This document shows positions 7,427-63,226 of a stretch of 64,000 nucleotides of DNA, one piece after another. The first letter of the stretch is position 1. The number at the start of each line of letters is the position of its first letter. The notes beneath the pieces were generated by a model. It ran no database searches and had not been told where the DNA came from. It saw only the letters and a list, made by a program, of their open reading frames with translations. The position numbers and the translations under genes are program-made. Source of the DNA: Escherichia coli (GTDB taxonomy: Bacteria; Pseudomonadota; Gammaproteobacteria; Enterobacterales; Enterobacteriaceae); assembly GCF_030013595.1 (NCBI RefSeq), contig NZ_CP122768.1. One strand, 5' to 3'.

Positions 7427-7447
7427 GCGTGAACTTATCCGGCCTAC
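7427..7447. repeat. REP (palindromic unit) element
   Basis: gccggatgcggcgtgaacttatccggcctac matches the canonical E. coli REP consensus. Confidence 0.75.
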
Positions 7448-9442: not shown

Positions 9443-9521
9443 GCCGGATGCGGCGAACGCCTTATCCGGCCTACAAAACCATGCAGTTTCATGTAGGCCT
9501 GATAAGCGAAGCGCATCAGGC
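9443..9521. repeat. BIME: two inverted REP elements
   Basis: gccggatgcggcgaacgccttatccggcctac followed by inverted gtaggcctgataagcgaagcgcatcaggc. Confidence 0.75.
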
Positions 9522-12026: not shown

Positions 12027-13451
12027 ATGTCTGAATTTGAATTGCTCGTGAAAGATCTTCTTTTAAAATCAGAAGAAGACGAGAAAAAGCGACAAGAAAA
12101 AGATCGAGAATTAATTTCAAAGGTTCTTGAAATCTATGATCAAAAATATGTTGCAGAACTCCTACGAAAAGTAGGAAAAAATGAATGGAGCAGAGAAACA
12201 CTTAACCGTTGGATAAATGGTAAGTGTAACCCTAAACAATTAACTTCTGCTGAGGAAACTTTACTTCGAAAGATGCTTCCAGAACCTCCCGAACATCATC
12301 CTAACTATACATTTCGTTTTATTGATTTATTCGCAGGGATTGGTGGTATTCGTAAAGGCTTCGAAAATATTGGTGGGCAGTGTGTTTTTACTAGCGAATG
12401 GAATAAAGAAGCGGTAAGAACCTACAAAGCTAATTGGTTTAATGATGAACTAAATCATAAATTTAATCTTGATATACGAGAAGTCACTTTAAGTGATAGA
12501 GATGATGTTTCCGAAATGGAAGCCTATAATCATATAGACAAAAATATTCCAGATCATGATGTCCTTCTGGCCGGTTTTCCATGTCAGCCCTTTAGTCTGG
12601 CTGGGGTAAGCAAGAAAAATTCTCTGGGGCGTGCACATGGTTTTGAATGTGAGGCACAAGGAACACTATTTTTTGATGTCGCTCGAATTATTAAATCAAA
12701 AAAACCAGCTATTTTTGTGCTTGAGAATGTGAAGAACCTTAAAAGTCATGATAAAGGTAAGACTTTTAAAGTCATCATGGAAACACTCAATGAATTAGGG
12801 TATGAAGTCGCCGATGCTGGTGTGACTGGCTCAGATGATCCTAAAATTATAGATGGAAAACATTTTTTACCCCAACATCGTGAGCGTATAGTGTTGGTAG
12901 GATTTCGTAGGGATCTAAATATTCACAAGGATTTCACGTTACGAAATATTAACCGCTTTTACCCTCAAAACAGGCCAACATTTGGTGAATTATTAGATCA
13001 TGATGTTGACGACAAATATATTTTGACTCCAAGGTTATGGGAATATCTTTACAATTATGCAAAAAAACATGCAGCAAAAGGAAATGGATTTGGTTTTGGT
13101 TTAGTGGATCCTAAAAATCCAGATAGTATCGCACGAACGCTGTCTGCTCGTTACCATAAAGATGGCTCTGAAATACTGATCGATCGTGGCTGGGATAAGG
13201 CTGTCGGTGAAATCGATTTTAGTAATCCAGCGAATCAAGAGAATCGACCAAGAAGACTGACACCTCATGAATGTGCCAGGTTAATGGGTTTTGAAAAACC
13301 AGGGGGAAGACCTTTTAGAATACCTGTATCAGATACTCAAGCTTATAGACAATTTGGGAACTCAGTTGTTGTGCCAGTATTTGAAGCTGTAGCAAGATTA
13401 CTAGAACCGTACATACAAAAGGCTGTCAGCATGCAAGTTATTAACGATTAA
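12027..13451 (+). CDS. DNA (cytosine-5)-methyltransferase, Dcm / M.EcoRII-like
   Basis: 474 aa; C5-MTase motifs [40 protein letters not shown]; close to E. coli Dcm along its length; AT-rich codon usage unlike its neighbours. Confidence 0.9.
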
Positions 13452-13475
13452 TAATAATTAACTTTCACTATTGTG

Positions 13476-13497
13476 AGGCCTTTTTTATTAAAGGCCT
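13476..13497. terminator. Hairpin between the convergent methyltransferase and restriction enzyme genes
   Basis: aggccttt-tttatt-aaaggcct: 8 bp perfect stem in an AT-rich context. Confidence 0.5.
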
Positions 13498-13538
13498 CTA
13501 AATATATAATCATAAGTTATTATAAGTATACTTTTATA

Positions 13539-14744
13539 TTATATAAAATCTTCATACAGCGTTATTAACTGTGTGATAAAACCCTCTAACGTTAATAATC
13601 CATCCCTGATTTCCTCCGGATATTTTTTATGAAGAGGGGAAGGTACAACCAAGGTGACACCTTCAGCTCTCATTTCGTTAAATTGAGCAACTGAGACACC
13701 CTCTTGTAAGGTAAACAAATATATTTTGTTGATTTTATTTGCTTCATTGAGTGCCTGACGCCACCGATCCTTACATGTTGTTTTTACAGCAAGCATACGG
13801 AGTTTTTCTCTTGGAAAGTGATCATCATGGTAAGCTGCCGCTGATGGAAAAAGAAAATCGGGTTTCTTTTTTCCTTCAGTAATACATTGAGTAGCAAAAT
13901 GATGCAGTCCATGCTCAATAAAAATTTGCTCAAGATGTAGCTCCAGTGATTTCCCGGCTCGAGATTTTCTTCGATTACTAACAGAGTTAGCCATAGCTAT
14001 AAAATCATCTACAGAACCAAACCCTTGACGGATGATGTCCAGTACGTGAATTTCTTCAACCATTAGAAAGAGATCATATTCAATACGGCGGCGTTCTAAA
14101 AGTTGGTCATCTGGACTGGTTACGCCTGTTGGGTAATAACCCGCAGCATATTGAATAATCTCTAAGCCAGAAGGAAAGCTATGTTTCCAGCTTTCCGGAA
14201 TAACATATTCCTTTTGAGAGATTTTTGGCCTTGATGCGAGTACACCAAGTATTTCACTGGCAGGCCCAAACATTAAAGTTCCAGGAATGATCTCCCCAAT
14301 AGCTGATTCCAGTACATCCTCTTCTTCTGGGCTAACACAAACCCATACATCAACACTTTTGCTGTCTCTCCCTGGCTCATGTTCAAACGCAAGCACAGAC
14401 AAAGCACCTGTATTTTCCGGATCCTGTAGGGGACTGCCAGCCCCCCACCGAGTGATGCGTTTTTCATTTCTTGTTTGCCCGAAATACTTATTATTGTAGT
14501 AAATAGCGCGAACCTCACTGTCTACACATTCATGAGAGGAATAAGTTGCGCGCAATAAAACCGAAGGATTTTTTTCTGACGTATGATCTATAGATGGGAA
14601 AAGTTCAGCGACGATACCAGAAGGGATATATACCCCCACTTGATGCCCTCCTGTTGCACCAGTGTCGTTTGCTGAAAGACGTTTAATATAGAGATAGTTG
14701 TTACCACCGACCTTATCAAGCAGCCAATCTTGTAATCCTGACAT
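13539..14744 (-). CDS. Type II restriction endonuclease, EcoRII family (expected target CCWGG)
   Basis: 401 aa; N-terminal YIKRLSANDTGATGGHQVGVYIPS and the remainder match my recollection of EcoRII; convergent with the Dcm-like gene as in EcoRII systems; AAGGA ribosome-binding site upstream. Confidence 0.8.
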   Translation of the reverse strand: MSGLQDWLLDKVGGNNYLYIKRLSANDTGATGGHQVGVYIPSGIVAELFPSIDHTSEKNPSVLLRATYSSHECVDSEVRAIYYNNKYFGQTRNEKRITRWGAGSPLQDPENTGALSVLAFEHEPGRDSKSVDVWVCVSPEEEDVLESAIGEIIPGTLMFGPASEILGVLASRPKISQKEYVIPESWKHSFPSGLEIIQYAAGYYPTGVTSPDDQLLERRRIEYDLFLMVEEIHVLDIIRQGFGSVDDFIAMANSVSNRRKSRAGKSLELHLEQIFIEHGLHHFATQCITEGKKKPDFLFPSAAAYHDDHFPREKLRMLAVKTTCKDRWRQALNEANKINKIYLFTLQEGVSVAQFNEMRAEGVTLVVPSPLHKKYPEEIRDGLLTLEGFITQLITLYEDFI

Positions 14745-14797: not shown

Positions 14798-14831
14798 CAG
14801 AACGACCAGAACGACCAGAACGACCAGAACC
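14798..14831. repeat. 9 bp tandem repeat (CAGAACGAC) x about 3.7
   Basis: cagaacgaccagaacgaccagaacgaccagaacc, 54-87 bp upstream of the restriction enzyme start codon. Confidence 0.9.
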
Positions 14832-15778: not shown

Positions 15779-16609
15779 ATGAGTTTTATTGAATGTTACG
15801 AACCGGAATACGTGCGCAATTTTATGACGCAATATCCCGATTCGCCTTTGTACATCCGCAAGGTGTGGAAAAACGAGATTCGCCTGAGCCTGATGCTGAC
15901 AGAGCCAGAAAGTTGCGAAGCGGTGCTCAACGATGCCAGGGCCTTTGATTTACAGCTCACCTACCGCCCGGCGGAAGAAAATGCCGCAGAGCTTTCCGCG
16001 CGCGATGCGATAGTAAACCAGGTCATTTTGAGTACCCTCACGCTCCCCGATTTAACCCCAGAGCTTTCACTATATGCCATCGGGATTTTACTCTCCCGCG
16101 CCAGCAAAATGCCGGGCAGAGACGGAGATATTCTTGCCCGTTTGACGACGCTGCCGCAGGCGCTGGCCGATCATGCGAAAAAAGGCACGCTACAGGCACA
16201 GTTCGCCCAACTTCCGCCCGTGCCACAGCTGGCGCGTCACCTGGCCACGCTACTCGGGAGTTTTACGTTTGACTGGTCGATTTTGCCGGAAAGCCCGCGC
16301 AAAACTTCGCTGCCGTTGCAGATGCCTTTGCTGGCGCTACATGACGCCAACAGCGAAGCCCTGGTGCAACAGCAGCTTCAGGCTCAGTGGCAAACCACCT
16401 GGCAACAGCATTTTGCCACCGCGCCCTGGATGATGCGTAACTGGCTGATTTACCGCGTTTACCATGAGGTGATTGGACAGGCAGACGGAGCAGATTATTG
16501 CCCGCTGGTGTGCGATTTTTATCTTATCCGCACGTTAATCAGTTTTATGGACGCTGGATGGTTCTCCGCTGCGACAGGAGGATATTTTCGCCCTTTTTGC
16601 GGTGTTTGA
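15779..16609 (+). CDS. Hypothetical protein (Flag-2 accessory)
   Basis: 276 aa ORF from the ATG after the sigma-54 promoter; the 3' end may be frameshifted (see findings). Confidence 0.55.
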   Translation: MSFIECYEPEYVRNFMTQYPDSPLYIRKVWKNEIRLSLMLTEPESCEAVLNDARAFDLQLTYRPAEENAAELSARDAIVNQVILSTLTLPDLTPELSLYAIGILLSRASKMPGRDGDILARLTTLPQALADHAKKGTLQAQFAQLPPVPQLARHLATLLGSFTFDWSILPESPRKTSLPLQMPLLALHDANSEALVQQQLQAQWQTTWQQHFATAPWMMRNWLIYRVYHEVIGQADGADYCPLVCDFYLIRTLISFMDAGWFSAATGGYFRPFCGV

Positions 16610-16729
16610 ACGCTGGCGAGAGAGTGAAAATGCGCTGTTTATTCGCCAGCAAATTCAGTCGTTATGTGCGGCAGAGCCGCTGCTTTCAGCATTTTCGCTG
16701 CTGACGTGAGTCGCTCTGTGCGCGCTTTT

Positions 16730-16840
16730 CCCCTCACCCTAACCCTCTCCCCAAAGGGGCGAGGGAACCGATCGAGCACGGTGTTAAAATCGGCGCTGGT
16801 TTTCTCCCCTCTCCCTGTGGGAGAGGGTCGGGGTGAGGGC
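16730..16840. repeat. GC-rich palindromic intergenic repeat, composite copy (near-identical to 6460-6570)
   Basis: cccctcaccctaaccctctccccaaaggggcgagggaaccgatcgagcac ... ctccctgtgggagagggtcggggtgaggg. Confidence 0.85.
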
Positions 16841-20348: not shown

Positions 20349-21686
20349 TTACTGTTCTGCCTTTTTGGCGGTGGGAAAGAGAATTTGCAGGCGGCTTTGC
20401 ACCAGTTCCAGGGAGGCGGGTTCGCGCATCTCCTGGCGCAAAAATCGCTCGATAGCCGGGAACATTTTCACCGCTTTGTCGACGCTGGCATCCGCGCCTG
20501 CCACGTAGCCGCCGAGTGGGATCAGCGGTTTGATCTCCATATAGGCGGCGTAGTTTTGCTTTAACGCGCGGGCGGATTGCTGATGTTCCAGGCTTGTGAC
20601 CTGGTTCATGCAGCGGCTGATCGACTGACCGATATCAATGGCCGGATAGTGCCCCGCTTCCGCCAGTTTGCGGGTTAATACGATATGCCCGTCCAGCACC
20701 GCGCGGGCGCAGTCAACGATGGGATCTTGCTGGTCGTCGCCTTCCGCCAGCACGGTGTAGATGGCGGTCATCGATCCCGCGCTTTCGCTGTTGCCTGCGC
20801 TCTCGACCAGTTTGGGGATCATGCCGAATGCCGATGGCGGATAGCCTTTGGTGGCGGGCGGTTCGCCGAGCGAGAGAGCAATTTCCCGCTGTGCCATCGC
20901 GTAGCGGGTCAGGGAATCCACCAGCAGTAAAACGTGATGCCCGCGGTCACGAAACCAGGCGGCGATGGAGTGGCACAGTTCGGTGGCTTTCAGGCGCATC
21001 AGCGGCGATTCATCGGCGGGCGCGACAACAACGATAGACTTTGCCAGCCCGTCCGCGCCCAACGAGTGGTCGATAAACTCTTTCACTTCGCGCCCGCGTT
21101 CGCCAATCAGCCCGACCACCACGATGTCTGCTTTGGTCTGGCGGGTGATCATCCCCAGCAGCACACTTTTCCCGACGCCGCTGCCCGCCATCAGACCGAC
21201 GCGCTGGCCTTTGCCGATGGTCAGCAGGCCGTTGATCGCTTTCACGCCCACGTCCAGCGGTTCGTCCACTGAACGGCGGGTTAAGGGATTAACCGAGGGC
21301 GGCAGCGGCGGCAGAAGGTCATTGCCGTTCAGGCGGCCTTTGCCATCCAGCGGTTCGCCGAGGCCATTCACCACGCGGCCTAACCAGCTTTCGCCAATCA
21401 GGATGTCGTGGGCTTTTTCTTCCGGGAAGACGCGTGCGCCCGCCATCAGGCCGACCGGCAGTTTAAACGGCATCAGGTAGGTGATGTCGCGATTAAAGCC
21501 TACGGCCTGCGCGTCGATAAGCGTGTGGTTGGCGCTTTCGATGCGGCACAGCTGCCCGGTCATTAGCGGGCAGCCGACGCTCTCCAGCAGGATGCCGTTT
21601 AGGCGCACCAGCCGCCCGGCGACGCGGGCCAGCGGGATCGACTCCAGCGAGCGCAGGGCGTTATCGAAAGCGGAAAAATCACTCAC
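20349..21686 (-). CDS. lfiI: Flagellum-specific ATPase FliI
   Basis: 445 aa; Walker A GSGVGKS. Confidence 0.9.
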   Translation of the reverse strand: MSDFSAFDNALRSLESIPLARVAGRLVRLNGILLESVGCPLMTGQLCRIESANHTLIDAQAVGFNRDITYLMPFKLPVGLMAGARVFPEEKAHDILIGESWLGRVVNGLGEPLDGKGRLNGNDLLPPLPPSVNPLTRRSVDEPLDVGVKAINGLLTIGKGQRVGLMAGSGVGKSVLLGMITRQTKADIVVVGLIGERGREVKEFIDHSLGADGLAKSIVVVAPADESPLMRLKATELCHSIAAWFRDRGHHVLLLVDSLTRYAMAQREIALSLGEPPATKGYPPSAFGMIPKLVESAGNSESAGSMTAIYTVLAEGDDQQDPIVDCARAVLDGHIVLTRKLAEAGHYPAIDIGQSISRCMNQVTSLEHQQSARALKQNYAAYMEIKPLIPLGGYVAGADASVDKAVKMFPAIERFLRQEMREPASLELVQSRLQILFPTAKKAEQ

Positions 21687-41068: not shown

Positions 41069-41107
41069 TACATCAATGTAAGCGACTCGTCAGAACCGTA
41101 TTGATAT

Positions 41108-42679
41108 TTACTGAGAGCTCAGATCAACTTTCCAGGGCAACAGATCGCGTACCCGGTTTGCCGGCCAGTCCTGGATATGTTCAATGACGTAACGCAGCCA
41201 CTTTTCTGGCTCCACATTGTTCAGACGGCATGTGCCGATCAGCGAGTACAACACCGCCGCATGTTCACCACCGCTGTCGGAACCCGCGAACATCCAGTTT
41301 TTCCGGCCTACGGCCACTCCCCGTAAGGCGTTCTCTGCGATGTTGTTGTCGATTTCCACCCAGCCATTACTGCAGTACACGTTCAGTGCATCCCACTGTT
41401 TCAGCAGGTATGCGAACGCTTTTGCCGTATCTGAGTGACGCGACAGTGTTTTCATCTGTTGCTGTATCCAGTCATACAGTGACTGCATCAGTGGCGCGGC
41501 TCTGGCTTTTCTTGCCGCCAGACGCTGTTCTGCTGAACAGCCCCGGACCTCTGCCTCGATGGCATACAGTTCACCGATACGCTGCAGGGCTTCCGTGGTG
41601 ATGTAGGTGGGCGCTCTTGCATGCACATCGTGGATTTTTCTCCGGGCATGAGCCATACACGCGGCTTCCGTTATTCTGCCGGATTCGTATAACGCCCGGT
41701 AACCACCGTAAGCATCGGCCTGAAGCACACCGCTGTAACCGGCCAGGTGATTTTGTGGATGGATACCTTTCCGGTCCGGACTGTACGCGAACCAGACCGC
41801 CGGGGGCATCTGTGAACCGGCGTTACGGTCATCACGGACGTAGACCCACAGCCGGGCTGTCCGGGTTTTACCGCTGCCCGGCTCCTGGACCGGGACGGGG
41901 ATATCATCAGCATGGACTTTACCGGGCATCAGCACATACTGGCGCAGGACGTCATACAGCGGCTCCAGCAGTTCAGCAACAGCACCTGTCCAGCGCCCCA
42001 GTGTGGCACGGCTCAGCTCCACTCCCTGACGACGGTATATTTCTGACTGGCGGTATAACGGCAGATGGTCTGCATATTTCCCGGTGACAACATGGGCCAG
42101 AAGCCCCGCTCCGGCATAACTGCGTGCAATGGGTTTTGAAGGTACTGGTGCCTGTACGATATGGTCGCACCGGCAACAGGCCTGTTTCGGACGTTGTGTT
42201 TCGATAACCTTAAAGGCGCTGCTGATAAGCTCCAGTTGCTCTGACACATCACATCCCAGAGAACTGAGTTCACCACCACAGGCAGGACAGCATTCCTCTT
42301 CCGGCCGGATAACCCGGGTTTCACGGGGAAGTGAGGCCGGTAACGGTTTACGGGCTGAAGACTGGCGCAGGGCGGATGGCAGTACCGGGTCATATTGCTC
42401 ACCCAGCGTTTCCGCCATTTCTTCCTGAAGTGCGCTGATTCGCTCCTGTGCTTCCTGTATCTGCCGTTCGGTTTTTGCACGAAGTTTTTCTGAGCTTTTA
42501 CCGAACTGCATACGTTGCAGTTTCGCAACCAGCGCCTTCAGCCGGTTGATTTCGGAAGCATAAGCCGCCACCCGCTGTGAGAGCAGGCGGTTGTATTCAG
42601 CCATCTGGCGGATGGTGTCCTGTTGCGTCTGCAACAGTGCCCGCAGGCGGGCGTTCTCATGAGCAAGTGAGGTGTCCAT
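41108..42679 (-). CDS. IS66-family transposase TnpC
   Basis: 523 aa; N-terminal coiled coil, Cys-rich zinc-finger region, DDE-type catalytic core. Confidence 0.9.
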
Positions 42680-42698
42680 ATCCTCACTTTACAACGGG

Positions 42699-43046
42699 TT
42701 ATATGCGGATTCCAGCGCGTTCCGTTCGTTTCGGGTGCTTCCAGTTGATACCTTCAAGAAGCATGGATAACTGAGCCGGAGTAAGGTGCACCTTGCCGTC
42801 ACGGGTGACTGGCCAGACGAAGCGGCCCCGCTCCAGGCGTTTGGTGAAGAGGCACAGTCCGTCACTGTCAGCCCACAACACTTTTATCTGGTCACCCCGG
42901 CGTCCGCGGAAGATGAACAGGTGTCCGGAGAACGGGTCATCCTTCAGGACGTTCTGAACTTTTGATGCCAGGCCGTTAAAGCCATTTCGCATATCGGTGA
43001 TACCTGCAACCAGCCAGATACGCGAACCTGCAGGGAGAGATATCAT
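42699..43046 (-). CDS. IS66-family accessory protein TnpB
   Basis: 115 aa; overlaps the tnpA stop. Confidence 0.85.
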   Translation of the reverse strand: MISLPAGSRIWLVAGITDMRNGFNGLASKVQNVLKDDPFSGHLFIFRGRRGDQIKVLWADSDGLCLFTKRLERGRFVWPVTRDGKVHLTPAQLSMLLEGINWKHPKRTERAGIRI

Positions 43047-43720
43047 CAGTGGCTGCTCCCTTTTATTTCGCGGATAAGTGTCTGTAATAACGCCGGCGTC
43101 AGTTTACCTTTAAGCCTGAGAGTTCCGGCCGGCAGAACCAGCTCACAACACAGACTGTCGGACGGTGTATTTATCTGCTCTGGTTCCTGTGCGGGGGCCG
43201 GGATTTTATTATCCGGCTCCGGCGTTAACGTCACGGGAAGCAGTGCCGGCATATTTTTTCCGGAAGGCAGCAGGCCACCTTTCCGGTATTGATGGCGCCA
43301 GTTGAAGAGCAGGTTATCGTTGATTCCGTTTTCCCGGGCGATCTGCGCCACACAGGCTCCGGGCTGCAGTGACTGCTCCACTAAGGCGATTTTAAACTCA
43401 TAAGGGAAGTTGGGCCGCCGGGGACGTTTTTTTACCACGGGGGCTTCGGATATAACGGTGCTTTCAGGACGTACGACTGGTACCGTGGAAAATTGTCCGT
43501 AAAGGCAGGCATCAAGTTCCTGCTCCGACATGCCTGCGGGCAAAGGCCACGAAAGGCCAGCTCTCCGAAAGCGCACGAACATACTACAAACTGTTGATTT
43601 TGGTACACCCAGGCGACGCCCGGCCACAACCCGGGGTAAATGTTCTTCAAAGTGAAGACGTAAAGCTTCAGTGATCCAGGTCCGGTGTTTCATACGATAG
43701 TGTCCATTAAAAATGGACAT
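43046..43720 (-). CDS. IS66-family accessory protein TnpA
   Basis: 224 aa; N-terminal HTH-like region; first ORF of the IS66 triplet. Confidence 0.8.
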   Translation of the reverse strand: MSIFNGHYRMKHRTWITEALRLHFEEHLPRVVAGRRLGVPKSTVCSMFVRFRRAGLSWPLPAGMSEQELDACLYGQFSTVPVVRPESTVISEAPVVKKRPRRPNFPYEFKIALVEQSLQPGACVAQIARENGINDNLLFNWRHQYRKGGLLPSGKNMPALLPVTLTPEPDNKIPAPAQEPEQINTPSDSLCCELVLPAGTLRLKGKLTPALLQTLIREIKGSSH

Positions 43721-43772
43721 TATTTTTGTAGAGCCGGAGGAAACAGACCAGACGGTTTAAATGAGCCGGTTA

Positions 43773-44237
43773 CTATTCAGCTTCATAAAGCTTTTTGAAC
43801 ATGGGGCTTTGATCCCAGGCGATCCCTTTGTAACGCTTCATATTTTTCCGCAATTCATCCTTTGAAAGATTCATAAAACGGATTTTTAATTTTTCATCGG
43901 TTTCAGTGTTGTAAACCAAATGTTCCATCCCACGCCAGGAGGACTCCAGTTTCTGAAATTCCGGATGACTCAGGATTAGTTTGATCTGCTCAGTTAATTT
44001 GAAATCGATCTGCTCAATAATCGCAGCAATACTTTTATAAGCGTCGTCACTGACGGTGACGGTATTTGTCAAAGCCTGTTGGGCCAGCGTCTGAACTGCT
44101 GCCTCAACAGCCTTTGCTGCCTGAGGTGTCTTGGGACGGAAGGCTTTATCCAGGAGCGAATCAAATTCAGTGTCCTGATAGGCAGTGGTTTGCGCAGCAG
44201 AGAGTTCGCCAGTCGCCAGAAGAGTATCGTTTACCAT
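43773..44237 (-). pseudogene. tssC: T6SS sheath large subunit TssC, 3'-truncated by the IS66 insertion
   Basis: Only about 154 N-terminal residues (ends ...SPMFKKLYEAE, which I recognise as the start of the conserved TssC core) before the IS terminal repeat creates a stop. Confidence 0.8.
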
Positions 44238-44261: not shown

Positions 44262-44807
44262 TTAGTCTGCTGTTCCCGTTTCACCTGATAAGACACTTTC
44301 CTGTTGAGCGACAGGTTTTGGCGCACTAGCCAGAGCTTTCAGTAACGTAGGGTCTTGTAATAGTTTGTTGATAAGATTTTCTGCTCCCGCTTTACCATCC
44401 ATGTAGGTTTGTAGGTTGGCAAGCTGAGTACGCGCTTCCAGCAGCTGGTTCAGGGCATCCACCTTACGGGCAATCTGCGCAGGCGAAAAATCGTCCATAT
44501 TCTCTAACGTGATATCGACCATTAACTGCCCTTCGCCCGTCAGCGTATTGGGGACAGCAAACGCCACGCGCGGCGCAATGGCTTTCATCCTCTCGTTGAA
44601 GTTATCGATATCAATATCAAGGAATTTACGATCGGTGACCGGCGGCAGCTCTTCACGCGGTTTACCCGCCAGGTCGGCCAGCACCGCCATGACAAACGGC
44701 AGTTCGATTTTTTTCTCGGAGCCGTAAATCTCAACGTCATACTCAATCTGCACGCGGGGCGCGCGGTTGCGGGCAATAAACTTCTGCGCGCTGTTGTTGA
44801 TAGCCAT
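44262..44807 (-). CDS. tssB: T6SS sheath small subunit TssB
   Basis: 181 aa; PRVQIEYDVEIYGSEKKIELPFVMAVLADL is the TssB signature. Confidence 0.9.
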   Translation of the reverse strand: MAINNSAQKFIARNRAPRVQIEYDVEIYGSEKKIELPFVMAVLADLAGKPREELPPVTDRKFLDIDIDNFNERMKAIAPRVAFAVPNTLTGEGQLMVDITLENMDDFSPAQIARKVDALNQLLEARTQLANLQTYMDGKAGAENLINKLLQDPTLLKALASAPKPVAQQESVLSGETGTAD

Positions 44808-45737: not shown

Positions 45738-48371
45738 TTAATCCGTTTCAAAAATAATCTGTTCATCCTCATCAACACGAATGCGGATTTGCGTGATGGC
45801 CGTTTTCTCTGTCATCGCCTGCAACCAATAACGGGACAGTTGTGGGAGGATATGTTGTTCGATATAGCCGATGAGCAAACGAGCGCCGGTCTCGTGCATC
45901 GGGCAGCGCGACACAATATGCGTAATCAGTTCATCGCCATACACCAGTGAAACGCCATGCCGCTCCGCCATCCGATCCATCAATCTGCCAAGATGCAGGC
46001 GGGCAATAACACCACGCGCGGTCTCATCCAGCGGTAAATAAGGAATAACCGTCACACGCCCCAGGAAAGCCGCCGGGAAGTGTTTACGTAACTCCGGCAT
46101 TAACGCCTCTTTTAACCCTGCCGAATCGGGCATCAGCGCCGGATCTTCACAGAGCTGGCTGATAAGTTCCGCCCCCGCGTTAGTAGTCAACAACAGCGTG
46201 GTATTTTTGAAATCGATGTGGACACCTTCGCCATCTTCCATCGCCCCCTTATCAAACACCTGGAAGAACAGCTCGTGGACGTCGTGATGGGCTTTTTCAA
46301 TTTCATCTAGCAATACCACGCTCCAGGGATGGCGGCGTACCGCTTCCGTCAACACACCGCCTTCGCCATAGCCGACGTAGCCGGGCGGCGCGCCTTTCAG
46401 AGTGGAGACTGTGTGAGACTCCTGATACTCGCTCATGTTGATGGTGATCAGATTCTGTTCACCGCCATAGATTGCTTCTGCCAGTGCCAGCGCGGTCTCA
46501 GTCTTGCCTACTCCGGACGGCCCGGCCAGCAAAAAGACACCCACAGGCTTACGCGGGTCACCTAAACCCGCCCGCGCGGTCTGGATACGCTCGCCAATCT
46601 GCGCCAACGCATCCATCTGCCCGGTAACACGCTGCGCCAAACGGGTGGGCAATTCCAGTATCTGACTGGCTTCATCTTTCACCATCCGTCCGGCGGGAAT
46701 ACCGGTCCAGTCGGAGACAATCTCTGCCACCACGGTTGCACTGACTTCCGGGTACACGACAGGGTTTTCACCCTGCCAGCCTCTTAATGCCGTTTCTGCC
46801 TGTTGTAGAGTGATTTCGTCGCGCTCGCCAGGCGCTGCGCCGCGTTGCTCCTGTAAACTGCGAACCAACTCCAGTTCCTGCTGCCACCGCGCTTCGGTGT
46901 CAGAAAGATCGGCATTAAGCGATATAATCCGCGCCGTCAGTACATCGCCCCGCTCCGAGCGGATACCCATTTTTTCCTGCTTTAATAACAACTCCTGCTC
47001 CAGTTCGGCAGCGTTGAGCTGCTGGCGCAGATACTGGACTCTCGCAGGCGGGGTATGCAGCGACAGCGCTACACGGGCCGCCGCCGTATCCAACAGGCTG
47101 ATGGCCTTATCCGGTAGTTGCCGGGCCGGAATGTAACGGTGAGAAAGCTGTACGGCGGCGCGCACGGCCTCATCAAGAATCAGGACATCATGGTGTTCTT
47201 CAAGCGTGGTGACTAATCCGCGCACCATCTCAACAGCCGCAACCTCTTCCGGCTCAGCAACCTGCAATACCTGAAAACGCCGGGTCAGCGCCGGATCCTT
47301 TTCGATATGGCGTTTGTACTCGCTCCAGGTGGTTGCGCCGATGGTGCGCAGAGTGCCACGCGCCAGCGCCGGTTTCAGCAAGTTGGCAGCATCCCCCGTA
47401 CCGGATGTACCACCAGCGCCCACCAGGGTGTGAACTTCATCAACAAAAAGTATCACCGGCTGCGCCGAGCGCGCGGCCTCTTCCAGCAAAGCTTTCAGGC
47501 GGGATTCAAATTCACCCTTCATGGACGCCCCAGCCAGCAGCGCTCCAACATCCAGTGACAGCAACCGCACGTTACGCAGTGAAGGCGGCACTTCCCCCCC
47601 GGCAATCGCCAGCGCGAATCCTTCCACCACTGCCGTTTTCCCGACCCCCGCCTCGCCGGTCAGCAGCGGGTTGTTCTGGCGACGGCGCAGCAGAATATCC
47701 GTCATAGTACGGATCTCGTGTTCGCGGCCGGTGACCGGATCGATATTGCCTTCACGGGCCAGCGCAGTCATGTCCTGGCAGTATTTCGCCAGCGCGGATT
47801 TACTTCCGGTTGATTCGCCGGCAAAGACCTGGCTAGCTTCCCCCGGTACTGCAGAATTTAAATCCGAGCCGTCATAAGGCATTTCTGTTAATTCAGGAGA
47901 TGAAGTGATTAAAGACGGAAGAATATCTAATAGTTCATCTACCGGTAGCTCTGCCAATGGCGCACAAATATTTTTTAACACCCGACACAATTCTGGCGTG
48001 GTTAACCAGGCAAGTAATAACCATCCACTACGAATTTTTTGATCGCCAAAGCGGATACTTGCCAACATCCAGGCTTTTTCAACAGAAAGATCGATATGAT
48101 GGGAAAAATCGTTAATTACACTCGCTCCGGCAGGCAATATATTCAATTGCTGAATTAACGCCTTCTCAACATCAGCAGATGTTATTTGATAATGTCGAAG
48201 CACATTGTGAATGTCATTCTCTGGTTGTTGTATTAACTGATGCAACCAATGCGTCAGTTCGACATAAGGATTAGCGCGTAATTTACAGAACGTCGTCGCA
48301 GATTCCAAAGATCTAAACAAAGATTTGGTTAGCTTTCCATACAGTGCACTGCGCGAAACAGGAGTGTCCAT
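45738..48371 (-). CDS. clpV: T6SS AAA+ ATPase ClpV (TssH)
   Basis: 877 aa; two AAA+ modules (GEAGVGKT, GPSGVGKT) and a ClpV-type N-domain. Confidence 0.9.
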   Translation of the reverse strand: MDTPVSRSALYGKLTKSLFRSLESATTFCKLRANPYVELTHWLHQLIQQPENDIHNVLRHYQITSADVEKALIQQLNILPAGASVINDFSHHIDLSVEKAWMLASIRFGDQKIRSGWLLLAWLTTPELCRVLKNICAPLAELPVDELLDILPSLITSSPELTEMPYDGSDLNSAVPGEASQVFAGESTGSKSALAKYCQDMTALAREGNIDPVTGREHEIRTMTDILLRRRQNNPLLTGEAGVGKTAVVEGFALAIAGGEVPPSLRNVRLLSLDVGALLAGASMKGEFESRLKALLEEAARSAQPVILFVDEVHTLVGAGGTSGTGDAANLLKPALARGTLRTIGATTWSEYKRHIEKDPALTRRFQVLQVAEPEEVAAVEMVRGLVTTLEEHHDVLILDEAVRAAVQLSHRYIPARQLPDKAISLLDTAAARVALSLHTPPARVQYLRQQLNAAELEQELLLKQEKMGIRSERGDVLTARIISLNADLSDTEARWQQELELVRSLQEQRGAAPGERDEITLQQAETALRGWQGENPVVYPEVSATVVAEIVSDWTGIPAGRMVKDEASQILELPTRLAQRVTGQMDALAQIGERIQTARAGLGDPRKPVGVFLLAGPSGVGKTETALALAEAIYGGEQNLITINMSEYQESHTVSTLKGAPPGYVGYGEGGVLTEAVRRHPWSVVLLDEIEKAHHDVHELFFQVFDKGAMEDGEGVHIDFKNTTLLLTTNAGAELISQLCEDPALMPDSAGLKEALMPELRKHFPAAFLGRVTVIPYLPLDETARGVIARLHLGRLMDRMAERHGVSLVYGDELITHIVSRCPMHETGARLLIGYIEQHILPQLSRYWLQAMTEKTAITQIRIRVDEDEQIIFETD

Positions 48372-48703: not shown

Positions 48704-49624
48704 ATGAAACCAAATATTACGTGGGGACTCCAAAAAATACAGGCGCACGGGATCGCCGATAACACAATTTACGCGACTGAAGGAACCCAAATTATCTTCA
48801 CCGTTACCTCCCCCTGGATTCCTGTTTTTGAGGTGAATGATGATGTAAAGATTGCCCTCAGTCTGACCCGCCACGAAGAAGCATGGTGGATTATCAATCA
48901 GTCTACCGAATATTGCTGTACGGTAAACGACCAGATTGTGGAACCTCATCACCGTATGCGTCTGAATGAAGGCGACCTGATAGAATGGGGGTTATCTTCA
49001 TGGTGCCTTGTGCACGGCAATCCATCATCTCCGGACCTGAGCGCAGTAAAAACGACATCGCAGACTGCCACCATGTCGGAAACAATAACCGAATATCTGG
49101 ATCTGGATTGGTTCAGGCAGCAGCATCTGACATCACAAAATCCATTCGATATCATTCCTGTTCATGGAGCCTCCTCCACTGGAGAAGATGCTAAAAAAGA
49201 AAATGCCCTGACTCGACTTTATCAGGAATACCGCGAGGCGTTGTTATCTCCTGAACAAGATCTTCATCGCCATGCTGATCCTTTTCCCTTTAACGAAGAG
49301 CCCTCCTCACAGGATCTGGATTCATTGCGTGATCTGGTCACTGAAGCCGAGACATTGCAGGATATGGTCACTGGCGGGTTAAGCATTGACGCTATTCTCG
49401 ATGTCCTGGACGCCACCGGCGAAGGGGAAACCGCCTGGCCTGCCGAAAAGACGCCCCCAGATATCCTGCACCTGCTATCCCCGGAATGCGCACCGGAAAC
49501 AGCGCATAACACCGTTCTGCCCGACCTGACACGCAAAGAGCATCGCATCATTGGCATTGACATTGACAGCCATTATCGGATAAACCCGGCACAACACGGA
49601 GAGATATCTCATGACAAACAATAA
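48704..49624 (+). CDS. T6SS-associated FHA-domain protein (TagH/Fha-like)
   Basis: 306 aa; N-terminal region resembles an FHA fold; heads the plus-strand T6SS operon. Confidence 0.55.
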   Translation: MKPNITWGLQKIQAHGIADNTIYATEGTQIIFTVTSPWIPVFEVNDDVKIALSLTRHEEAWWIINQSTEYCCTVNDQIVEPHHRMRLNEGDLIEWGLSSWCLVHGNPSSPDLSAVKTTSQTATMSETITEYLDLDWFRQQHLTSQNPFDIIPVHGASSTGEDAKKENALTRLYQEYREALLSPEQDLHRHADPFPFNEEPSSQDLDSLRDLVTEAETLQDMVTGGLSIDAILDVLDATGEGETAWPAEKTPPDILHLLSPECAPETAHNTVLPDLTRKEHRIIGIDIDSHYRINPAQHGEISHDKQ

Positions 49625-50441
49625 CGAGCTACCGGCTACCCTGTCGGCGCTGCTGCGGGATTATTCCGTGGCGGAGGGCATTCAAATGGCAGAACAGCAG
49701 GTCAGGATGCACCCGGCGCAGGCCTCCCGCCGCCACAGCCTATTTCAGTTATTGTGCGTGGCAGGCTACTGGTCGCGGGCACTGCAACAGATCCAGCTAT
49801 GCGCCCGGATGGACGCAAATTATACCCGCGAAGCGCAGGTATTTGGCGAGCTGATACGCTGTGAGATATACCGCCACGCCTGCTTTCAGGGAGAACAGCG
49901 GCCCGATTTTATTCTCCCGCCGCCCGCCTGGATGGAGGATCTGCTGACCGCCCTCGCCTGTAACGCTCGTGGTGAAGCGCAGGAAGCTGACGCCCACCGC
50001 AGCCGCGCACTTGAGGCCATAACAGATACTGCAGGGCAGTGGAATGGTGGCGCATTTGACTGGATTAGCGACAGCGACTCCCGTACCGGTCCGGTACTCG
50101 AACTCATCGCGGGCGGAGTATATATCTGGCTGCCGTTTTCACAAATCTGTTCGCTAAAATCGCCGCGGCCTGCGCATCTGACCGATTTGATCTGGAAACC
50201 CGTCAACGTCACACTGAATAATGGCGACACACACAGTGCCTGGCTGTTTTCCCGCTACAGCGGCTCTGAAAAGGCTGCCGACTCCCTGCGTCTGTGCCGG
50301 GAAACGGTCTGGCAGGACGGGCCGGGAGAGACTCTGGTACAGGCGCTGGGTCAGAGGGTGTGGCTCACCGGTCACGGCGATATCAGCCTGCTGGATTTGT
50401 CCACCTGTACCTTTAACACCGCTGAAGGAAGCGACGCGTGA
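49611..50441 (+). CDS. tagJ: T6SS accessory protein TagJ (ImpE family)
   Basis: 276 aa; pattern LFQLLCVAGYW ... GPVLELIAGGVYIWLPF matches ImpE/TagJ. Confidence 0.7.
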   Translation: MTNNNELPATLSALLRDYSVAEGIQMAEQQVRMHPAQASRRHSLFQLLCVAGYWSRALQQIQLCARMDANYTREAQVFGELIRCEIYRHACFQGEQRPDFILPPPAWMEDLLTALACNARGEAQEADAHRSRALEAITDTAGQWNGGAFDWISDSDSRTGPVLELIAGGVYIWLPFSQICSLKSPRPAHLTDLIWKPVNVTLNNGDTHSAWLFSRYSGSEKAADSLRLCRETVWQDGPGETLVQALGQRVWLTGHGDISLLDLSTCTFNTAEGSDA

Positions 50442-50932
50442 GCGCTTCCCGCCAGCGTCCGGGCAATCACCTGCTGCCCACGCTGTTTGACCGCCTGTGT
50501 GATGATGCCCCAAACCAGAAACGCGACCACGATATCAGCGTCAGCCCGGTTCAGCTTAAGGAGATCATTCGCCGGGATTTGTCATTTCTGCTCAACACCG
50601 TCAGCCATGAAGATGATATTGATGCTGCACGTTATCCGGACGCGGCAGCGTCCGTACTGAACTACGGCCTGCCGCCACTGGCGGGCAGCTTTCTGTATGA
50701 ACACAAGTGGGACGATATTCGCAGGGCCATTTTGCGTACCATCATCCGGTTTGAACCCCGGCTGAAAGCGTCCACCCTGCAAATCATCCCACTTCAGGAT
50801 GAGCGCCACCAGAGCGGCCATAACACATTACAGTTTGAAATTCGCGGCGAGATCCTCACGCAGCCCTACCCGATGGCATTCCGGGTACGCAGCGCGCTGG
50901 ATATGGAACAGAGCCGCATTACGTTTTTTTAA
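50438..50932 (+). CDS. tssE: T6SS baseplate protein TssE
   Basis: 164 aa; LLPTLFDRLCDD N-terminal motif; GTG start overlapping the tagJ stop. Confidence 0.8.
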   Translation: MSASRQRPGNHLLPTLFDRLCDDAPNQKRDHDISVSPVQLKEIIRRDLSFLLNTVSHEDDIDAARYPDAAASVLNYGLPPLAGSFLYEHKWDDIRRAILRTIIRFEPRLKASTLQIIPLQDERHQSGHNTLQFEIRGEILTQPYPMAFRVRSALDMEQSRITFF

Positions 50933-50947
50933 TTCAGAGAGAAACCG

Positions 50948-52830
50948 ATGGATCCACGGCTACTGGAATACTACAACCGCGAACTGAGCTATCTGCGGGA
51001 AACGGGAGCCGAATTTGCCGCCCGTCATCCTAAAGTCGCCGCCCGACTGGGTATGCAGGGAACGGATATTGCCGATCCGTATGTGGAGCGAATGGTCGAG
51101 GCCTTCAGCTTCCTGACCGCCCGCACGCAGCTAAAAATTGACGCTGAATTCCCCCGTTTCACCCAGCGTCTGCTGGAAGTGGTCAGCCCCAATTACGTCA
51201 CACCCACGCCCTCAATGAGCGTGGCGCAGCTTCATCCCAATCCGGAAGAAGGCGATCTGGCGAAGGGATTCACCGTCCCGCGCAACACGGCCTTTTTTTC
51301 CGCCATTCCGGAAGGCGAAAGTACCGCCTGCCAGTTTCGTAGCAGCCAGAATGTGACGCTGTGGCCGCTTGCCATCGAAGAGGTGCGGCTGACCGCCGCG
51401 CCGCCGGATATGCCTGCCCTGCACCGCTACCTGCCAGCCAACATTCACGTCGCTGGTGCGCTGCGTATTACCCTGCGCACCTTTGGTGAACTGACGTTCA
51501 GTCAGCTTGCAGGGCTGAACAAGCTGCCATTTTATCTCTGCGGCGAGGAGCGCACGGCCTCACACCTGTTCGAACTACTGCATACCAGCGCCATCGCGAG
51601 CCTGGCTGGCATTCCGGGGCATTTTGACGGCGCACTGGATGTGAATCTGAAACAGCCCGTTATGTACGAAGGCCTGGATCCGGATCAGGGACTGTTGCCG
51701 CTGGCGTGGAATGTGTTTCACGGCCATAACCTGCTACATGAATATTTTACCTGTCCGGAACGCTTCTTTTTTTCACCCCGACAGGCCTGTCTGCCGGGTT
51801 ACAGAAAATTAACGGCGGCGTGGCGGAGATTGTTATCCTGCTGAACCGCCTGCCGCCGGACTGGCTGATCCACCAGACAAACGCGGCACAGTTCAGCCTG
51901 TTCTGTACCCCGGTTATCAACCTGTTTCCCCGCGTCGCCGCCCGGATCGATGTCACGCACAGCACGACGGAACAGCATCTGGTGGTGGACAGAACCCATC
52001 CGCTGGATTATGAGGTGTTCTCGGTCCAGGAAGTGGAAGGGCTGGAAACTGACACCACACGGAAGATGGCCTTTCGCCCGCTCTACCACACCCGCAATAA
52101 TGATGAAGGCAATCACGGACGTTATTTTTCCCTGCGCCGGGAGCCGCGCCGGTTGTCGGAAAATGCCCGCCGCTATGGCACCCGCACCTCCTATACAGGA
52201 TCAGAAGTGTTCCTGTCGCTGGTTGACCAGTATGAAGCGCCGTACCCGGAAAATCTGCGCCATATCACCATCACGGCTATGGTCACCAACCGCGATCTGC
52301 CCTGTCTTATTGCCCGCAATGGACGGGACGATCTGACCGTGGATGCGGCCATCCCGGTGGCGGGCGTGGGGCTTATCCGTCCGCCGCGTCCGCCGCAGCC
52401 TCCGCTGGCTGAACGTGAAATGGCCTGGCGGTTGATCCGCCAGTTATCCTTTAACTATCTGCCGCTGGCCGATCTGGATCACCGTACCGGTGGTCAGGCG
52501 CTGCGCGATCTGCTTAACCTGTTTATTCCGGCGCATGACAGTCCGCAGTCGCGCCAGGTGCGCAGCCTGATTGGCTGCAACACCACCCCGGTCACCCGCC
52601 GTCTGCCCGGTTCCGGGCTGCTGGTCTATGGGCGCGGCGTCAGTTGTGAACTGACCGTGGATGAGGAGGGGTTCTCCGGTATCAGTCCGTATCTGTTCGG
52701 TCTGGTGTTGGAGCACTATATCGCCCGTCATGTTTCCATTAATACCTTCTCGCAGATGACGCTGCACAGCATGCAGCGCGGCAAAATTATGACCTGGCCT
52801 GCCAGGGCGGGACAGCGGGGAAGCGTATGA
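50948..52830 (+). pseudogene. tssF: T6SS baseplate protein TssF, frameshifted in a T7 homopolymer (51767-51773)
   Basis: Two overlapping ORFs (50948-51844 frame 2; 51820-52830 frame 1) together give a TssF-length protein; an eighth T would restore ...ERFFFFTPTGLSAGL... Confidence 0.7.
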
Positions 52831-53822
52831 GCGACGATTTCACTCAGGCGCAGGAAACCCCCTGGCGTTACGGTTTTCTGAACCTGATGCGCCGCGTGGA
52901 TGTGCAGTTGTGTACTGTTCCGGCAGGCAACACCTGGCAACCACGGATGGAAAAATTTCGCCTCGGACAAACTCCCGCGCTGACCTTTGCGCCACGGGAA
53001 ATCGCCAGTGTGAGCTGGCAGGAAGAGCGGCTGCACATCAGTTTGTACAGTCTCGGGCTGTGGGAGCCGAACGGTCCACTGCCGCTGCACTACACCGAAC
53101 TGGCGCGCAACCGGACTGAAAGCCGAAGAGACCCGACGCTAACCCGTTTTTCTGATCTTTTTCATCACCGCTGGCTGACGCAGTTTTACCAGGCATGGCG
53201 CAGCGCCCAGTCCGCTGGGGGCGGTCTGGATAAACCACAACATGACCGTTTTGCCTTTTATATCGCCAGCCTCAGCGGGCAGGATTTGCGGGAGAGCGCC
53301 GACAGCCCGTTGCCGGATCACGCTCGCCTGGCGGCATCGGCCCATCTGGTGCGTGAGTCCCGCAATCCGGACGGTCTGGCCACCACGCTGGCGCACTATT
53401 TCGGTGTACCTTTCCGGATACAGGAGTATGTCCTGCACTGGATAGCCGTGGCGGACGATGAGATCACCCGGCTGGGGATGCCAGCCCCCTCTTCCGTTAT
53501 TGGCAACGGTGCACTCATCGGCCAGGCCGTGCCGGACATGCAGTATAAGTTCCGGCTGGTTATCGGCCCGCTGACGCTGGAGGATTACCGACGTTTTCTG
53601 CCTGGCGGCAATAACCTGCCAGTCCTGACAGAACTGGTCCGCGCCTTTAGCGGTTTTGAATACTGCTGGGAAATTGAGCTACAGCTAAAGCCCCACGCCG
53701 CCCCTCCGGCTGTTACCGGTGGTTCGTACCAACTGGGCTGGACCGCATGGGCGGGTAAAGCCATGCACGAAAACCCGGTGACGGGCATGATTTTCGAACC
53801 AGAACACTACCTGGCGCACTGA
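52827..53822 (+). CDS. tssG: T6SS baseplate protein TssG
   Basis: 331 aa after tssF; TssG-like N-terminus. Confidence 0.8.
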   Translation: MSDDFTQAQETPWRYGFLNLMRRVDVQLCTVPAGNTWQPRMEKFRLGQTPALTFAPREIASVSWQEERLHISLYSLGLWEPNGPLPLHYTELARNRTESRRDPTLTRFSDLFHHRWLTQFYQAWRSAQSAGGGLDKPQHDRFAFYIASLSGQDLRESADSPLPDHARLAASAHLVRESRNPDGLATTLAHYFGVPFRIQEYVLHWIAVADDEITRLGMPAPSSVIGNGALIGQAVPDMQYKFRLVIGPLTLEDYRRFLPGGNNLPVLTELVRAFSGFEYCWEIELQLKPHAAPPAVTGGSYQLGWTAWAGKAMHENPVTGMIFEPEHYLAH

Positions 53823-53832
53823 GGATAATTTA

Positions 53833-54879
53833 ATGGATACATCCCTGTCTGACCCAATTTCGGCAGAATGCCCCTGCGGCCCGGATCTGGAGTACGATCC
53901 GGAATACCTGCTACTGTTCACGCGCGCCGCACCGCGTGAAGAAGCGCAATACGGCGATTTTGTCAGTACGCCGGAAACCATTAACTGGGCGGAGCTTGAG
54001 CGGGATGCCTGCCGACTGCTGACGCGCAGCAAAGATATCCGCATTCTGGTTGTCCTGCTGCGCTGCCGTATCCAGCAGGCCGGTGCCAGGGGACTGGCGG
54101 AGGCGCTCGCGCTGCTGGAAACGTTGTGCGCCACGTACCCGAACGCCATCCATCCTCAACTGCTCGCGACTGAAGATATCACCGCCGAAGAGGCGGCAGT
54201 GGCACGTAGTAACGCCCTGGCGGCGTTGCTGGACCATGAAGGCGTAATAGCGGATATTCGTGGCATTACACTGTCAAACAATGCTGCCATACGCCTTCAG
54301 GTACGGGATGTGGAGCGTTCGCTGTCTGCATCACGCCCGGCGGATGCGCTGGCACCAGAATCGGTACGCCAGCAACTGGCCGACCTGGAGGCGCGCGGCA
54401 CACTGCCGCTGGATGCCTTTCGCCAGGCCGCAGAGACCACTGAGCGGCTGCAACGCCATGCGCGTGAAACGCTGAATGACCAGGCACCGAACCTATCCCG
54501 TCTGACACAATTGCTGGCCCTGTTGCCGGGAGCGATACGGACCACCACGCCGGAGATCCTGCCACAACCAGTGGCTGAACAGCCGGAGAGCACCACCATC
54601 GTTCATACTGAACAGATATCATCAGAGCAGATTGCGCTACCGGTGCATATCGCGGAGGAAATATCACCGATGTCCGGCGCAGACCCCCGGCAGATCCGCG
54701 ACCGGAACGACGCGCTGGAACGCCTGCGTGTCATCCGTCGCTGGTTTGAGCACAGCGAACCGAGCAGCCCGACCATTCCTTTGCTGCGCCAGGCAGAACG
54801 CCTGGTCGGAAAACGCTTCTCGGAGGTAATAAATGAAATTCCAGTAGAACTGCTGGAAAAATGGGATGCGCTGGAGTAA
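53833..54879 (+). CDS. tssA: T6SS protein TssA (ImpA N-terminal domain)
   Basis: 348 aa; ImpA_N-type motif CGPDLEYDPEY; gagga ribosome-binding site. Confidence 0.8.
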   Translation: MDTSLSDPISAECPCGPDLEYDPEYLLLFTRAAPREEAQYGDFVSTPETINWAELERDACRLLTRSKDIRILVVLLRCRIQQAGARGLAEALALLETLCATYPNAIHPQLLATEDITAEEAAVARSNALAALLDHEGVIADIRGITLSNNAAIRLQVRDVERSLSASRPADALAPESVRQQLADLEARGTLPLDAFRQAAETTERLQRHARETLNDQAPNLSRLTQLLALLPGAIRTTTPEILPQPVAEQPESTTIVHTEQISSEQIALPVHIAEEISPMSGADPRQIRDRNDALERLRVIRRWFEHSEPSSPTIPLLRQAERLVGKRFSEVINEIPVELLEKWDALE

Positions 54880-55010: not shown

Positions 55011-55087
55011 TGGCGGAACGGACGGGACTCGAACCCGCGACCCCCTGCGTGACAGGCAGGTATTCTAACCGACTGAACTACCGCTCC
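55011..55087 (-). tRNA. aspV: tRNA-Asp (GUC)
   Basis: Reverse complement is the 77 nt E. coli tRNA-Asp, GGAGCGGTAGTTCAGTCGGTTAGAATACCTGCCTGTCACGCAGGGGGTCGCGGGTTCGAGTCCCGTCCGTTCCGCCA. Confidence 0.95.
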
Positions 55088-63192: not shown

Positions 63193-63226
63193 AAAAAAAA
63201 CCTCGAGCGTTAACTCGAGGCTTCTT
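63193..63226 (-). terminator. Rho-independent terminator after aspU / rrnH
   Basis: Minus strand reads cctcgag-ttaacg-ctcgagg followed by tttttttt. Confidence 0.8.

Follow-up and report, generated by a model that had tools for sequence, protein, structure and literature searches.

In the window (the whole stretch of 64,000 nucleotides of Escherichia coli DNA that was analysed, from contig NZ_CP122768.1), the T6SS baseplate gene tssF is broken: its run of T's, ancestrally eight long (T8), has shrunk by one to seven (T7) at 51767-51773 on the plus strand. We infer that the base was lost by mutation in the cell, a reading that is marginally favoured over an error of the sequencer. For the window itself, the frameshift is either a neutral scar or a base-calling slip, and the T6SS remnant in which it lies is dead either way.

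TssF should appear as a single continuous ORF of approximately 600-630 aa; here, it is split at codon 276, and the gene as written (50948-52830, plus strand) is a pseudogene. The T7 run lies within cttcTTTTTTTcacc (51763-51777), in the context ...GAACGCTTC TTTTTTT CACCCC..., and corresponds to the ancestral tract (TTC TTT TTT TTC, encoding FFFF) minus one T. The 5′ ORF (50948-51844, plus strand, 298 aa) comprises 275 native residues and a 23-residue out-of-frame tail (SPRQACLPGYRKLTAAWRRLLSC), and ends in a premature stop codon at 51842-51844, with which the C-terminal 352 residues are lost. The TssF-homologous frame picks up again at 51774, immediately 3′ of the run, and the 3′ ORF, read from a GTG (51820-52830, plus strand, 336 aa), lies in a different frame from the 5′ ORF.

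In profile searches, the 298-aa ORF matches positions 1-268 of the 608 in Pfam T6SS_TssF (PF05947; E 1.5e-104), and the 336-aa ORF matches positions 286-608 (E 8.5e-106). Both halves singly pass the cut-off of 260.3 bits of the NCBIfam TssF equivalog model TIGR03359, the 5′ ORF with 300.5 bits and the 3′ ORF with 291.5 bits, covering positions 1-260 and 279-598 of 600, respectively; the equivalent of the restored protein scores 617.3 bits. Since adjacent ORFs jointly span one family profile end to end, and meet at a homopolymer, a chance pattern is ruled out. A preliminary description of this DNA had interpreted the two overlapping ORFs as one TssF homologue divided by a -1 frameshift in the T run, and had predicted that one added T would restore a protein of normal length; the profile matches agree with the former, and the latter is borne out exactly. 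Inserting one T yields a continuous TssF of 627 aa (...ERFFFFTPTGLSAGLQ...), 100% identical to that of E. coli HCP5S3_I2 (WP_000371482.1). It also matches TssF in solved structures of the EAEC baseplate wedge (PDB 6GIY, 6GJ1, and 6N38) over residues 1-619 (E 1.2e-46). The gene order tssE-tssF-tssG is kept at the locus. We recommend that tssF be labelled as a pseudogene with a possible homopolymer error, rather than annotated as two genes.

The length of the ancestral tract can be read from intact genes. The preliminary description suggested alignment with intact tssF orthologues as a check, and a break conserved among them would have spoken against a lesion. No such break was found. Alignment with four intact orthologues gave T8 in three and the interrupted tract TTTTATTTTTT in one. 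A query of 81 bases with the tract at its centre hit 111 complete E. coli genomes, without a single exact match; the tract is T8 in the 19 with close alleles and the interrupted, likewise 8-base TTTTATTTTTT in the other 92, and is in-frame in all 111. The closest relatives of the window also carry T8. A metagenome scan for both T7 and T8 found only four copies, on contigs with identical flanks; all four are T8, a number too small to be informative. The comparisons with intact genes show T8 to be the ancestral state.

The surroundings of the gene bear on what its loss can mean. The window is part of the E. coli chromosome and carries, from left to right, the Flag-2 cluster, yafL-dpaA-yafJ-gmhA-fadE-ivy-yafV, the T6SS remnant, and aspV, beyond which it continues through dnaQ and rnhA into an rRNA operon. 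In the island lies a full-length, ISCro1-like element of the IS66 family (41078-43773, minus strand; tnpA, tnpB, and transposase), which stands in place of 26,726 bp of the island. It adjoins a remnant of tssC (43774-44237, minus strand) that preserves the first approximately 154 codons of a 504-codon gene (positions 3-132 of 473 in TIGR03355), followed by an intact tssB (44262-44807, minus strand) and an intact tssH/clpV of 877 aa (45738-48371, minus strand). On the plus strand are tagK (48704-49624, 306 aa), tagJ (ImpE; 49611-50441), tssE (50438-50932), the broken tssF, tssG (52827-53822), whose start overlaps the tssF stop (ATGA) and which is present as the sub-lineage allele G80E, and tssA (ImpA_N; 53833-54879). 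The tRNA-Asp gene aspV (55011-55087, minus strand) forms the right-hand boundary of the island. In tagK, a lineage-specific, in-frame 6-bp insertion of CATTGA at 49555-49560 gives 306 aa, as opposed to 304 aa in other relatives; in the public collection, 105 blocks carry this marker.

The IS66 assignment rests on TnpA (NF038385) and the transposase (NF033517), both called with NCBIfam profiles, on TnpB (called as TnpB_IS66 in relatives), and on terminal inverted repeats (GTAAGCG.../GTAACCG...; the full ends read GTAAGCGACTCGTCAGAACCGT and GTAACCGGCTCATTTAAACCGT). There is no 8-bp target-site duplication, the flanks at 41070-41077 and 43774-43781 being ACATCAAT and TATTCAGC, respectively; such mismatched flanks fit an IS-associated deletion of the intervening 26,726 bp. 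What was deleted is best seen in the closest complete genome, that of the sister strain HCP5S3_I2 (NZ_CM149870; 99.9% identity), where the island retains rhs, vgrG, tagF, tssM, tssL, tssK, tssJ, hcp, tae4/tai4, and a full tssC. In the window, all of these are gone, save the first third of tssC, and the complete T6SS core set (tssA-M, hcp, and vgrG) is therefore not present. The preliminary description had spoken of other decay in the island, and the replacement of 26.7 kb, including most of the core genes, by IS66 confirms this. Because core genes are deleted, with IS66 in their place, the T6SS is non-functional whatever the state of tssF, and the functional effect of the tssF frameshift in the window is nil.

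The island of HCP5S3_I2 carries lesions of its own. Its IS66 copy is identical to that of the window over 2,638 bp, but sits in tagK and is itself interrupted by IS3; tagK is thus split by nested IS66 and IS3, and there is an internal stop in hcp (L021, 28390-28875; L001, 5632-10629). Two closely related lineages thus carry different lesions, which indicates that the same island has been inactivated independently.

Beside the T6SS remnant, positions 1-33000 hold a Flag-2 locus for lateral flagella that looks complete (flg, fli, and flh genes and a sigma-54 activator), in which all large ORFs are intact save a fliB-like gene. This gene, a Flag-2 lysine-N-methylase (15779-16709), has one T too many at 16543 when compared with its intact, 309-aa counterpart in strain 1190, and is thereby frameshifted. 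L049, a closer relative, has the same T, as does HCP5S3_I2, whose annotation also marks the gene as frameshifted; since it is common to both, the lesion is inherited and real. Between flgA and flgM, the locus also encodes a Dcm-type cytosine methyltransferase and an EcoRII-like type II restriction endonuclease (12027-14744). Upstream of the endonuclease, a 9-bp tandem repeat, CAGAACGAC, is present in 3.7 copies (14798-14830), and its copy number varies among close relatives, with two units fewer in the sister strain and one fewer in L050. Compared with the sister strain, the window has a 3-bp indel at 7434 and a 2-bp indel at 9455, both inside REP-like palindromic elements (gccggatgcggcg...) located between flagellar rod and hook genes.

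As a proxy for resequencing, relatives were chosen by three markers of the lineage, namely, the 306-aa TagK, the IS66-tssC′ junction, and TssG G80E. The assemblies with the junction and the 306-aa TagK (L025, L026, and 12 collapsed similar places) encode a 627-aa TssF with T8. The TssG-E80 allele is on 49 contigs in an exact look-up, and the retrieved assemblies that also carry it (L044-L048 and 7 collapsed places) are all T8. A pseudogene inherited by the lineage is hence rejected, relatives with all three markers having the intact 627-aa protein, and the missing T is, by these comparisons, private to this genome record. The closest of the relatives, L044 (GCA_021649405.1), has 0 SNPs relative to the window over 20,623 bp and differs at two places only, both of them homopolymers: the tssF tract (T7 in the window vs. 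T8) and an A tract at 63193 (A8 vs. A7). The latter, an intergenic run at 63193-63200 between dkgB and tRNA-Asp, is A7 in L044 and HCP5S3_I2 and A8 in MEI003, L045, and L046, and is a second 8-base homopolymer that varies among near-identical genomes.

Over approximately 56 kb, the changes private to the window relative to its nearest relatives are two SNPs and two one-base indels. The SNPs, at 20949 and 29903, both leave the protein unchanged, the private SNP in fliI being synonymous. Two further SNPs, at 29153 and 32229, which change FliR and FlhA, belong to the lineage and are real, the exact protein variants of the window being present in many other assemblies. The indels are the missing T in tssF and an additional C at 16806. 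At the latter position, the window has C4 and every other genome examined has C3; the site is at the 5′ edge of a perfect, GC-rich 9-bp hairpin (CCCTCTCCC TGT GGGAGAGGG) in the intergenic region that separates the Flag-2 glycosyltransferase gene from the fliB-like gene.

The preliminary description offered two explanations for the break, a genuine slipped-strand event and a homopolymer sequencing error, and this framing holds. To a genuine, very recent, and strain-private deletion of one T by replication slippage we give an even chance. In that sequence of events, an IS66-associated deletion would first have removed most of tssC together with hcp, tssJ, tssK, tssL, tssM, tagF, vgrG, and rhs; replication slippage would then have dropped one T from the T8 tract of tssF, very recently and in one strain, and translation would now exit the TssF frame after residue 275, add 23 unrelated residues, and stop. 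With a T6SS island that no longer worked, the strain would have tolerated the loss of the T. The artefact explanation, to which we give a little short of an even chance, holds that the strain is truly T8 with an intact tssF ORF, and that a consensus based on long reads under-called the longest coding homopolymer by one. That T7 is private to the record, with at least 12 near-identical relatives all T8, fits such an error, as does the closest relative, which differs solely at two 8-base homopolymers over 20.6 kb; the absence of SNPs over this distance also leaves little time for a real mutation. Two long-contig assemblies of the same clone miscall the tract, along with other runs, giving T5 in L027 and T7 in L028, and the noisy public contigs L007, L017, L019, and L038 under-call it likewise. 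The window crosses an IS66 element of 2.7 kb without a break and reaches into an rRNA operon, so that it probably comes from a long-read or finished assembly, which again counts against a genuine mutation. So does the direction of change on record, where only contractions (T7 and T6) and no T9 allele were found, since this is the direction of under-calling. Finally, there is a second private 1-bp indel, that at 16806, and two SNPs against two one-base indels in approximately 56 kb is indel-rich for natural divergence.

Against the artefact, each of the 15 other runs of at least 7 bases in the window, the A8 at 63193 among them, has the length seen in at least one good comparator, and systematic homopolymer under-calling across the window is accordingly unsupported. 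Across approximately 50 kb of coding sequence, no intact gene apart from tssF is broken by a private indel, the sole other such indel being intergenic. Random consensus errors would be expected in coding sequence, whereas private indels that lie where selection would not remove them form the pattern of real neutral mutations. Tract length also changes on the timescale in question, as 8-base tracts differ among near-identical genomes: A7 and A8 at the intergenic run, and T7 and T8 in tssF, where, besides the window and L044, the T7/T8 pair L009 and HCP5S3_I2 shows 0 SNPs in 5.8 kb. The frameshift in the fliB-like gene, common to the sister strain and L049, indicates that real 1-bp frameshifts persist in this lineage, and it is counted for genuine mutation. 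Lastly, the T7 allele is present elsewhere in clean assemblies of the short-read type, which indicates that it is biologically real in other strains.

These other strains deserve attention in their own right. In exact-sequence look-ups, the 298-aa fragment of the T7 type is on 6 contigs and its N98D version on 10, and the 336-aa downstream ORF is on 24; the three commonest intact TssF alleles are on 591, 318, and 40 contigs. The share of T7 is roughly 3% of records. L007, L017, and L019, noisy contigs in which other runs are under-called as well, are left out of the tally; there remain at least 11 clean, independent T7 assemblies without any other homopolymer discrepancy. They represent at least five nucleotide haplotypes of tssF, one of which differs from the window by 25 SNPs, and several T7 alleles are in islands in which all other genes are intact over the approximately 14 kb retrieved. 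This distribution suggests that the T8 tract is a recurrent frameshift site in nature, a recurrent error site being the less likely reading. Those who score the presence or function of T6SS in E. coli by gene content should therefore check the T8 tract of tssF, as T7 recurs in unrelated strains with otherwise intact-looking islands.

A frame break at a homopolymer also raises the question of whether the gene is meant to be read this way. Functional recoding or phase switching would require that the T tract be slippery, with RNA polymerase adding a U or the ribosome slipping by -1 on U UUU UUU so that a share of TssF is still full-length, and that T7 and T8 act as reversible OFF and ON states of the T6SS; we regard this as highly improbable. 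In its support, the insertion of one U at the run, or a -1 slip in the P site there, would give back exactly the wild-type protein with its FFFF, and T7 recurs on at least five haplotypes, including backgrounds 0 SNPs apart. There is also a T6SS precedent in the A11 tract of Citrobacter rodentium tssM1, with 20-25% transcriptional frameshifting (PMC4256274), and a study with a -1 reporter gives rescue by E. coli RNA polymerase of approximately 5% at T7, approximately 10% at T8, and none below T7 (PMC6260861). A T7 run is at the lower limit for slippage. The break is moreover unconserved, since the tract is 8 bases long and in-frame in the nearest relatives as well as in all 111 complete genomes, and the interrupted form in 92 of the 111 indicates that the run is not maintained by selection.

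Recoding sites typically have a run of at least 9 A or T, or a heptamer with a stimulator. Here, one finds 7 T's and an unexceptional downstream fold; downstream RNA structure is not significant (z = -1.67 and -0.90), and no strong Shine-Dalgarno-like motif was seen by eye just upstream of the run. A programmed -1 ribosomal frameshift is rejected, the downstream fold being no better than that of shuffled sequence and the break unconserved. With most T6SS core genes deleted, recoding is irrelevant in the window in any case. A wider idea concerns strains with intact islands whose tssF has an uninterrupted T8; there, T7 would be a leaky OFF allele, read through at a low level by RNA-polymerase slippage and reversible, which would make the tract a contingency-like, low-rate switch that turns off the aspV subtype i1 T6SS in a few percent of natural isolates on several independent backgrounds. 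This seems unlikely to us. The tract is indeed polymorphic among very close relatives (the window and L044; L009 and HCP5S3_I2), some of which may be sequencing error, but it does not behave as one maintained by selection with both expansions and contractions, being interrupted in most complete genomes and without a T9 allele on record. Even if true, such a switch would be irrelevant in the window, where the machine is already deleted.

Three kinds of known system offer a comparison beyond the sequencing error. The first is the ordinary pseudogene made by homopolymer slippage in a decaying accessory island. The E. coli subtype i1 T6SS (T6SS/1), located at aspV by Flag-2, has been described as highly variable and often truncated (Leimbach et al. 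2017, PMC5422975); in bovine E. coli no other region of this kind varies as much, and several of its copies are small remnants without function. The island of the window resembles these in its locus (yafV ... impA/tssA-aspV, adjoining Flag-2) and in its mode of decay, in which IS insertions and large deletions combine with small lesions to leave a non-functional remnant. It differs from the published cases in that the tssF lesion is private to one genome record, and no mention of a T8 to T7 lesion at tssF codon 276 was found in the literature. Transcriptional frameshifting has been described for tssM1 of C. rodentium and tssM3 of Yersinia pseudotuberculosis (Gueguen et al. 2014, PMC4256274), and as in these genes, a homopolymer in a T6SS core gene coincides with the frame break in tssF, and one added nucleotide restores the full-length protein. 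In tssM1 and tssM3, however, the tract is A11, the gene is normally found with its frame broken, and slippage was measured by experiment, whereas tssF has T7, relatives without the break, and the rest of the machine deleted.

Simple-sequence contingency loci produce phase variation through homopolymer length in Campylobacter, Neisseria, and Haemophilus. The tssF tract is like these in being polymorphic in length among near-identical genomes and in presenting the same OFF allele on several haplotypes, and is unlike them in being short (8 bases), interrupted in most E. coli alleles, and seen to vary by contractions only. The homopolymer under-calling of long-read, 454, and Ion Torrent data is matched by a one-base contraction in the longest coding homopolymer and by the under-calling of this tract in noisy assemblies of the same clone; it is not matched by the other long runs of the window, which are correct, or by the T7 alleles in assemblies without other homopolymer discrepancies. 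In sum, tssF shows an ordinary contraction of a homopolymer by one base, in a baseplate gene whose T6SS island had already been dismantled.
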